Positions 27,001-30,000 of a stretch of 64,000 bases of DNA are shown here, piece by piece. Numbering within the stretch: the stretch's first letter is position 1; every line of letters starts with the position of its first letter. The position numbers are program-made. The stretch is from Thermovirgaceae bacterium (GTDB taxonomy: Bacteria; Synergistota; Synergistia; Synergistales; Thermovirgaceae): NCBI GenBank assembly GCA_040767805.1, contig JAXGNU010000004.1, positions 96,001 to 160,000 of the forward strand. The letters are read 5' to 3'.

Positions 27001-30000
27001 CGTTGACCGCCGCCGTAAGGGCCAGGGGCCACCGCCTCGCCCCGGCCATATCGGTCAATCTCCCTATTAGGACAGCACCTATCATGGCTCCCAGGACCAC
27101 CAGGGACACGACACCCGAGGCTTCGGCCCGGGTGAGCCCGTAGACGCTGGTCAGCCATGGGACCCCCCAGGCGCCGGTGAAGGCCAGCTGCCCGCCGCTG
27201 TAAAGGCCTGAAATGGCCATGGCGGGCCAGATACCCCTTGACCGGAGCGCCCCTCCCACCGCGTGGAGCAGTTCCCGGCCGCCGATCTTCGGCCCCGCCT
27301 CGGTGGGGTTGACCGGGGCGAACCCCATATCAGTGGGGCGGTCCCTTATAAGAAGAAGGGAGGCGGCACCCAGGAGGAAGGAAAATCCCCCTATCGCAAC
27401 GAAGGTCATCCTCCAGGAAAAACAAGCCACCATCATGGCAAGGGGCGCCTGGGCGACGAGCCCGCCGGAATTGCCGACGAAGGCCGTGACGCCTGACATG
27501 GTGGCGAACTCCCTATCGCTGTACCACTCGGAAAGCATTTTAAGGATGCAGACGAATACGGCGGAGGCACCCACGCCGACGACGAACCTCCCCAGGTAGA
27601 CCAGTGCCGGGGACGGCGCCAGGCCGAAGGCCAGGGACCCCGCCCCCGAAAGGAAGACACCCGCCGTGACGGTTTTCCTGGCCCCCAGCGAGTCGGCCAG
27701 CATGCCCACCGGGATCTGCATGGCCGTGTAGGCGTAAAAATACATGGAAGCGAGGTGACCGAAGGCCGCGCCGGTCATCCCAAAGGCGGCGACCAGGTCG
27801 TCGCGGACCACCCCGGGGGCCAGCCTGTGGAAGAAAACTATCATGTAGACCAGGGCCATGACGCTCCAGACGACGAGGCGGTACCGGCCGACGTCGGCCT
27901 TGAGCCAGCGGGTGATCTTGGCGACGGGTGCCATCGGGGGAGCTCCTTCCGACGGTATGTTGTGATCCCAAAGGGTGACCTTGACCGGTCATAAGCATAC
28001 TATATTTCTCGCAGAGCGGGGTCAGGTCTACACTTTTGACTAAAACCAGGCTTTGCCCCGCTCCCTGGGGCTGTCCGGCCACAGAGGCAACTCGGGCCAC
28101 CTGTTGCCTCATATAAGAATCTAAGTGAAAGCTATTCGTTGCCTCATGGAAAAATCTAGGCGACCTTGCCTGAGTCGATCTCGTTGCCTGCAAGAGTCCT
28201 GTTTTTGTTCCTGAAGGCCCTGTTTAGCCTTGACTTGAGCCTGTCGATCTCTTTCTTCAGGTCTGCAGGGTTGAGTGAGTCGAACTGCCCCCTCAGGTTG
28301 GATTTTACCTCTTCCGCGACGTGATCAGAGTCCAGCAGACGCTGACAGGGTGTTTTGGGCGTGTCGTAGCTCTTTTTGACCTTCGCTCCGGTCCTCGTCT
28401 TCGATATCAGCTTCGCCGAAGGGAGGAAGAAGTTAACGTAAAGCCTGTAAACGTCATAGAGCTCATTCAGGGCCTTTACCTCACCTTCCGTATCGTACCT
28501 GGCATACCCTGCCACCCTTCTTGCCACTGACCAGTTCTTCTGCTCCACGTAGCAGTTGTCGTTCTTGTTCCCTGCCCTTGACCTTGTGAAGGTTATCCTT
28601 TCGTCTTCGCAGTACTTTTGCAGGTGGTGGTTTATGAAGGTCGAATCGTTGTCCGAATCTATCCCGCAAAGAGGGAAGGGGAGACGACTCCTGATAGCCT
28701 TCAACGCCTCCATGGTCCAGATCCTCGCCCTGTTCCTGACGGCCATCAGCTCGGTCCACCCCGACGCGACGTCCGTTACGTCCAGCGTGAAGGCGAACTC
28801 TCCGCTTGAACATCCCCCCTCATGGGACACCAGGTCTATCTCCACGAAGCCGGGCTTGTCCTCATCCCAGTCGGCAAAGGTCCGTATCGGTATCTTGTGC
28901 TTCAGCAGTGTCCCGGGCTTGGTGGAGGAACGCTCCTTCAGGCGGAGCTTTCTCTTCCGGTCCGCCAGCATGCGGTCTATGGTTGCCGCAGACACGGACA
29001 TGACCTTGAGCCTCCGGTCATCGTCAAGGAAGAGATCCTTCGTCGCCTCAAGTTTAGGGACCAGCCATGGAATGGCAGCGGCAAGCCTCTTGCCGCAGAT
29101 GTAGTCCATCATCTTCCACAGTGTCGCCACTGCATCCGCAACCTCCCTGTCGTAGGTCCTCTTCCTCTTCCTGCGGACCTTGCTGTCCTTCCTGTCGGCC
29201 TCAAGGATGAACCGGGTGCCCCTCTTGGACTCCATGTATAGGCGCTTGCCGAAGAGGGTAAGGAGGTGCGAAGCGTAGTCACGGTTGTAGCCTGTTATCT
29301 CCGTAATCCTGTCCAGGATCTGCCCCTTATCCTTCTTCGATGCCTTGCGGTACTTATCCGCCGACTTGACGATAACTTCCCTTCTGGAAACCATCGAGAG
29401 CCTCACCCGTCCTTCCCCCTTCCCTCCGGGGCATGCCCTTCGGGAAGATGCTATACCTTTCGCATAGATTCTCAGGTGAGGCAACTCGGGCCATTGACAA
29501 ATGCCCCGGGGCGTTATACTATGCTGCAAACGCCAGGAACGGCCAACCCTTAATAAAGGAGGGAAACCGCGTGAAGGACAGGGTCCAGGGCTCCGTTGCA
29601 GTGACCGGCAATACCGCCATTATCGTCCTCGTTCTTACGTGGGGGTCCCCTCCTGGGGCGGCCGTCGCGCTGTAGGCGCGTAACCGCAGACCGGGACCGG
29701 GGCCCCCTTTCAACGAGGGGGCCCCGGTTTTTTATTGGGTTCGCGGCAGTCCTGGAGGATCGACCGGAAGGGGAGAGGAGAAATGCAAAACGCGAGAGGT
29801 GTTTTTATGAACCAGGTCCCGGCGACGACGTGTGACAAGGTGCCGACGGTGGAACCGGGGAACCGACACAGCCAGGATCAGTATTCCCAGGATCTTTTTG
29901 ATCCTAAGTGGAGGGGTCCCTTCGAAGGGTATAGATAGGTATGCGAATCCCATAAGTCCGTGAGGAGGGTGGCGATCGTAGCCCCAGAGCTTGAAACCCC

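Follow-up and report, generated by a model that had tools for sequence, protein, structure and literature searches.

The window, which is the whole stretch of 64,000 nucleotides that was analysed, carries a compact element on its forward strand at 29494-29938, extending from a promoter through a small ORF. The promoter is of sigma-70 type (TTGACA-17-TACTAT, 29494-29522) and was the single site returned by the promoter scan, against 0.1 expected. It is followed by a ribosome-binding site (AAAGGAGGGA, 29555-29564) and a leader ORF of 34 codons with GTG start (29571-29675), in which the control codons Ile-Ile-Val-Leu-Val-Leu (IIVLVL, 29619-29636) run ahead of a GSPPG segment and whose product ends GSPPGAAVAL. 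The GSPPG codons are predicted to form an antiterminator with the terminator's 5' arm (29641-29707, -45.8 kcal/mol), and folding places an intrinsic terminator hairpin with U tract at 29695-29734, which a simple terminator scan of the window did not list. A second ribosome-binding site (29768-29779) leads to the ORF of a 51-aa, predicted disordered protein (29783-29938), which closes with the motif W-R-G-P-F-E-G-Y-R-stop (29909-29938) around the fixed core RGPFEGxR. The earlier note had described the 51-aa ORF with its ribosome-binding site and terminal motif, the Ile/Leu/Val leader and the terminator, and we found all of them in place.

As that note also said, the small ORF lies upstream of addB: an addB-like gene follows at 30082-32997 on the same strand, and it adjoins the element only in the window's family. 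Several genomes of this family have an inverted repeat over a -10-like box and the ribosome-binding site before addB (window 30040-30070; loci L014-L018), possibly an operator or a hairpin hiding the ribosome-binding site. On the other side, upstream of the promoter and outside the unit, an insertion sequence with a weak IS481-family transposase match occupies 28100-29477 on the reverse strand. It is missing from locus L384, an empty-site allele otherwise 99.9% identical, and therefore the promoter is native. The insertion is recent and has four relatives at 79-82% in the same genome.

Contigs from four metatranscriptome runs of four studies matched the element with no mismatch. The leader alone was covered in three runs, with starts at 29528, 29543 and 29561, and the small ORF alone in the fourth (29744-29953, 0 mismatches). 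Since these are contigs which may include DNA, the pattern is a weak hint only, and stretches without coverage were left unused.

The small ORF belongs to a family of Synergistota. A strict pattern of WRGPFEGYR type was found at 23 places in 21 of 268 genomes (control 0), as had been counted before. With a relaxed terminal pattern the family reached 67 places in 62 of the 268 genomes, belonging to 16 genera and six families (control 1), so the Synergistota family noticed earlier is real and considerably larger than it had seemed. All 67 matches read R-G-P-F-E-G-x-R-stop, although two of the positions allowed other residues. Among 61 terminal motifs the first residue was W in 45, F in 12 and Y in 4 (the search admitted only these three), and the penultimate one was Y33, L9, V7, H4, F3, M2, T2 and I1. 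Thus the nine residues once called invariant are not so; the strict search pattern had imposed them, and only the core is fixed. A terminal copy of the motif does end the ORFs, as claimed, which are 37-75 aa long (61 ORFs), but 25 of the 61 carry a second, internal copy 26-30 aa upstream of it, and some loci, as in family f8, have two small ORFs in tandem.

A pattern scan across GTDB gave 71 loci. The leader was present at 53 of them (52 Synergistota-named, one unnamed bacterium), and the 18 leaderless matches were set aside as chance. These 53 and six further loci make the set of 59 loci, containing 61 terminal motifs, used below. Among metagenomes 80 of 119 stretches were examined, in which 64 of 85 matches had the leader and no new architecture appeared; viral contigs gave 0 motif matches. 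Profile search brought out diverged members, and its matches in genomes G018, G021 and G168 proved on inspection to be chance frames. We used the pattern search for genome counts because the HMM missed G012 and G009. Three matches to longer or fused forms were all mis-called starts of the same ORF (8000 candidates scored; weak evidence). The protein had been reported as missed by gene calling and as finding only itself in protein search. This could not be upheld: profile search returned 16 representatives, one of which is identical to the 51-aa protein of the window, and there are 70 database clusters, several of which have NCBI accessions as hypothetical proteins.

Codon substitution indicates that selection acts on the small ORF at the protein level. 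Over 17 disjoint pairs, the variable part gave a pN/pS of 0.22 and the motif one of 0; 46 differences within the motif were synonymous and none was non-synonymous. The synonymous variation already noticed extends to every motif codon over the 61 motifs, all three stops are in use (TAG 30, TAA 23, TGA 8), and 58 of the 61 ORFs have a start linked to a Shine-Dalgarno sequence. AlphaFold2 gave no fold and no secondary structure (mean pLDDT 59). We obtained no family match in Pfam (25 members searched), NCBIfam (six proteins), PDB sequences or the ESM Atlas (two queries).

The leader, the duplex between GSPPG codons and terminator 5' arm, and the terminator were present at all 59 loci examined, with a median duplex energy of -24.6 kcal/mol by folding. 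It means that the upstream leader, given before for 19 of 23 loci, is confirmed with a higher figure. In 54 leaders, Ile, Leu and Val made up 465 of the 648 residues (72%) encoded by the 12 codons before GSPPG, and the consensus terminator showed changes on both sides in five of ten pairs. In such attenuators, stalling of the ribosome on control codons frees the antiterminator segment, while full translation lets the terminator form. The parts found here are of this kind: a short ORF with ribosome-binding site in which codons for the sensed amino acids follow one another, and a mutually exclusive antiterminator and U-tailed terminator whose geometry favours read-through on stalling. The same leader type precedes ilvN operons (Ile/Leu/Val codons), leuA (Leu) and genes for methionine uptake and synthesis (Met), so that the leader codons match the controlled pathway; in the window's own genome one leader of this type stands before leuACDB. 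This survey used a covariance model on 46 genomes, with downstream genes named by eye and leuA by HMM. The matching leaders before ilvN, leuA and Met genes are an internal control for an amino-acid-sensing attenuator. Together with the codon variation, pN/pS, ribosome-binding sites and pairing, they bear out the earlier view that a branched-chain attenuator controls a small ORF which is conserved and coding. An Rfam scan of the window at curated score gave no match for the GSPPG-type leader and no T-box.

GSPPG-type leaders are widespread in the phylum, being matched in 30 of the 46 genomes (L226-L275; in the own genome C15:10392-10509 and C6:103885-109521). By gene names assigned by eye, a sodium symporter has a Leu leader as leuA does, phenylacetate-CoA-ligase-like genes have Phe/Tyr leaders, and a 2-oxoacid:ferredoxin oxidoreductase subunit has an Ile leader. 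The Phe/Tyr and Ile contexts suggest that Phe and Ile are synthesised through reductive carboxylation.

What follows the small ORF differs between lineages. In the window's family addB comes next, in f8 a hydratase-like gene and elsewhere unrelated genes, and the same-strand neighbours too vary by lineage. The next gene is convergent at 24 or more of the 59 loci (at least; a crude caller gave 27, less three likely antisense miscalls), and a terminator-like hairpin lies within 130 nt 3' of 21 of the 61 ORFs. The frequent convergent next gene argues that the product probably acts in trans, and the varying or convergent next genes together with the close hairpins mean that the unit exists for the peptide. 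Comparison of the loci shows a mostly stand-alone unit of promoter, Ile/Leu/Val leader, predicted antiterminator and terminator, and conserved coding small ORF. Proximity to panB was dropped as a link, there being at least two paralogues per genome. From the fixed short motif, the disorder and the duplication we infer a fit with a linear binding motif for an oligomeric partner.

The same data bear on whether the ORF might be a second cis-acting leader or arrest peptide for the next gene, or a non-coding RNA. R-G-P resembles the RAPP/RGPP arrest motifs, and by the crude caller the next gene is on the same strand at 30 of 59 loci. However, where the motifs discussed in PMC12992588 have P or G as fourth residue, this one has F. 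Internal copies of the motif lie away from the stop, the next gene is convergent at many loci, folding of the region does not exceed that of shuffled sequences (z 1.1), and both the use of three stops and the purely synonymous motif changes speak for a protein. We consider this reading very improbable. Equally little weight can be given to the idea that the ORF, with its one or two cores, supplies a carrier scaffold or is processed into a modified peptide or a cofactor, in the manner of mycofactocin, PqqA or LysW. The variable N-terminus, the fixed aromatic C-terminal motif and the repeated cores would suit it, but inspection by eye of about 3.5 kb upstream and 6.5 kb downstream at 28 loci, together with scans of 25 and 13 proteins, revealed no recurring modifying enzyme, peptidase or exporter among the neighbours, and the N-terminal parts share no leader motif across lineages. 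This reading is likewise very doubtful.

When Ile-, Leu- or Val-tRNA runs short, the ribosome would stall on the control codons of the leader, the GSPPG segment would pair with the terminator arm, and RNA polymerase would read through. The disordered peptide would then be made and work in trans via its short linear motif, sometimes doubled for avidity. We put the probability of this chain at roughly 0.85; induction on starvation and translation of the small ORF are predictions drawn from the DNA.

One candidate partner of the motif is an enzyme of branched-chain metabolism, as these bacteria ferment amino acids: the peptide might inhibit a catabolic 2-oxoacid oxidoreductase or dehydrogenase and spare keto acids, or modulate LeuA, LeuCD or LeuB. 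In f8 the unit is directly upstream of the hydratase-like gene and leuCDBA, and in genus g16 leu genes are 5-10 kb from the element. leuA was found in 53 of the 62 genomes carrying the element, and most of the well-assembled sister genomes that lost the one had lost the other; among genomes of carrier genera that are at least 90% complete, leuA was present in 41 of 47 carriers and one of five non-carriers (Fisher p 0.0035, kin not being independent). Genome G252 was excluded from this comparison because its leader sits at a contig end. Against this, a LeuA orthologue is lacking, even as a fragment, in five carriers that are 91-94% complete, no LeuA residue cleanly divides nine carriers from 25 non-carriers, and oxidoreductase and E1 inventories in five genomes do not track the element. 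Also, leuCDBA of f8 has its own promoter and Leu leader. ilvN is absent from four of five tested carriers, two of them single-contig and also lacking ilvC, and the hydratase was found neither in three of three tested carriers outside f8 nor in the own genome; by these absences ilvC/ilvN and the hydratase-like gene were ruled out as universal partners. We regard an enzyme partner as rather unlikely.

Two observations on these genes stand apart. In f8 (L030, L032, L034, L035, L091) the hydratase-like gene, of 2-keto-4-pentenoate hydratase type, lies between the small ORFs and the separately attenuated leuCDBA. The single-contig genomes G043 and G045 have leuABCD and neither ilvC nor ilvN, so their leucine has to come from a valine- or isobutyrate-derived keto acid.

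The peptide could also act against CodY: induced by uncharged tRNA, it would disable an amino-acid-activated repressor in a feedback loop, for which anti-TRAP is a precedent (PMC10327191). CodY is present in 62 of 62 carriers, and CodY-box-like sites occur near the start site (mean best mismatch to the consensus 4.9 against 6.7 in shuffled sequences; 16 of 54 promoters with four or fewer), an enrichment which 20 other leaders do not show (6.3 against 6.8). Co-occurrence says little, however, because almost the whole phylum has CodY (246 of 268 genomes). Moreover, CodY of carriers has two types of ligand domain while the motif stays fixed, and the window's own promoter has six mismatches to the box. 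Complex prediction of a CodY dimer with the C-terminal 32 residues scored 0.00 in two runs with the controls not folded, which counts neither for nor against. We consider this mode of action very improbable. The two CodY types of Synergistota (L309, L317-L346) differ in that one has conserved Cys residues and the other an acidic FDD segment there.

The reading we favour, though with low confidence, is mimicry of NusG, raised after other candidates had been tried, from a resemblance to a KOW loop. The GPFEG followed by an aromatic or hydrophobic residue would imitate loop L1 of the NusG KOW domain, and the peptide would occupy the NusG site on hexameric Rho or, less likely, on ribosomal protein S10. 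With this site blocked, stalled ribosomes would not bring Rho-dependent polarity to long operons, ilv-leu for example. Of 1457 proteins called in the own genome, NusG alone contains an exact GPFEG. Its VRVKAGPFEGQ aligns with VRVNDGPFADF of E. coli, and the GPFADF there is loop L1 (140-144), described in PMC6391919 and PMC8116511 as a contact to Rho and S10. NusG had GPFEG in four of four carriers and three of six non-carriers; the three tested members of the large element-free lineages had GPFAG, GPLAG or no such loop. Among 120 database NusGs it was present in 54 of 54 nearest carrier references against 21 of 66 nearest non-carriers, some of the latter possibly outside the phylum. Of the 62 carriers 57 have rho, and of the 47 that are at least 90% complete 46 have it; the own genome lacks rho where its assembly has a gap between the ends of two contigs, and in the Rho-less genera g37, g38 and g44 the element was found in 0 of 16 genomes. 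Tyr, the commonest peptide residue at the position equivalent to F144 (33 of 61), may be compared with NusG F144Y, which is reported still to stimulate Rho and probably to have a weakened S10 contact (PMC6391919).

Other results temper this reading. Exact GPFEG is expected by chance 0.72 times per proteome, the motif matrix ranked NusG fourth of 1457 own proteins, and hhalign gave 10% probability over seven columns. L1 offers no counterpart to the motif's two arginines, the fixed one ahead of G and the terminal one. GPFEG may be the ancestral state of carrier NusGs; ancestry alone could explain the covariation, and kin are not independent. In five carriers the assembly contains no rho, although that of G253 is 91% complete, and most Rho-bearing Synergistota are without the element. 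Phe165 of loop L2 is essential for both contacts according to PMC6391919; the peptide has no clear L2 counterpart and no beta-barrel. The absence of a Pfam hit, the match over only seven columns and a disordered model in place of a beta-barrel with L1 and L2 make it less likely that the peptide is a KOW domain, not that it mimics L1. We hold only tentatively that it may mimic L1 and blunt Rho polarity while ribosomes stall. It is doubtful that the full scheme applies, in which a microprotein switched by tRNA uncharging would compete for Rho as a starvation-induced brake on polarity, its tandem motif copies reaching from one protomer of the hexamer to another. As every named partner rests on indirect evidence and trans action is well supported, another one such as a tRNA synthetase, transporter, protease or the ribosome was weighed also; nothing specific speaks for it, and we regard it as unlikely.

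NusG itself varies in the phylum. In genus g24 (L505, G116) both the L1 and L2 motifs were lost though Rho was kept, and the Rho-less genus g38 (L504, G154) has altered loops.

Amino acid attenuators normally govern enzymes and transporters. Here the attenuator governs a microprotein that stands by itself and whose motif core is absolutely fixed across 16 genera, which points to a protein-level response to branched-chain starvation in main amino-acid fermenters of anaerobic digesters. If NusG mimicry is true, it would explain how long biosynthetic operons stay transcribed when ribosomes stall for their own amino acids, and would provide a short peptide from nature with which to probe the Rho-NusG interface; competition for Rho would couple amino acid supply to genome-wide termination. 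Even without mimicry, the nine-residue motif makes target finding by pull-down simple.

Among known systems, the KOW domain of NusG/RfaH shares GPFEG, identical to NusG L1 in the carriers tested (PMC6391919, PMC8116511), but only these five residues are common, and the peptide is without the KOW fold. Anti-TRAP (RtpA) of Bacillus subtilis is alike in its length of about 50 aa and, as predicted for the present peptide, in its induction when the tRNA of one amino acid is uncharged and its action in trans on a regulator. According to PMC10327191 it is T-box controlled, folded, zinc-binding and trimeric, whereas the present peptide has no conserved Cys, looks disordered and, by the Rfam scan, has no T-box. 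Arrest peptides of RAPP/RGPP type likewise have R-G-P near the C-terminus of a short ORF, but PMC12992588 gives an R-A/G-P-P or RAPG core with a conserved co-directional gene, in contrast to RGPF and neighbours which vary or converge. The motif MRC-9 (Stav 2019, PMC6429828) is a Synergistetes-only intergenic motif with 11 examples, listed with function "?" in a table row that gives no ORF, leader or mechanism. The row names a serine dehydrogenase proteinase neighbour, and this family (PF01972) flanks the element at three of three loci tested in one genus. So the earlier suggestion that MRC-9 may cover the element gains a shared neighbour; it is probably the same locus type, judged by the neighbour family in the table row. 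The literature searched, to which subscription papers mostly do not belong, gave no description of the peptide family and "RGPFEG" only in unrelated papers. The closest switches are the leader attenuators of ilv/leu genes, such as Corynebacterium ilvB-II (PMC10272879) and the ilvD leader of S. aureus with CodY (PMC5794164), which are alike in the ORF of branched-chain codons, the antiterminator against a terminator and a possible CodY layer. The present unit differs from them by its distinct GSPPG-type leader and by controlling a microprotein, not an enzyme or transporter. The switch class itself is known, and the microprotein family under it is real and undescribed.
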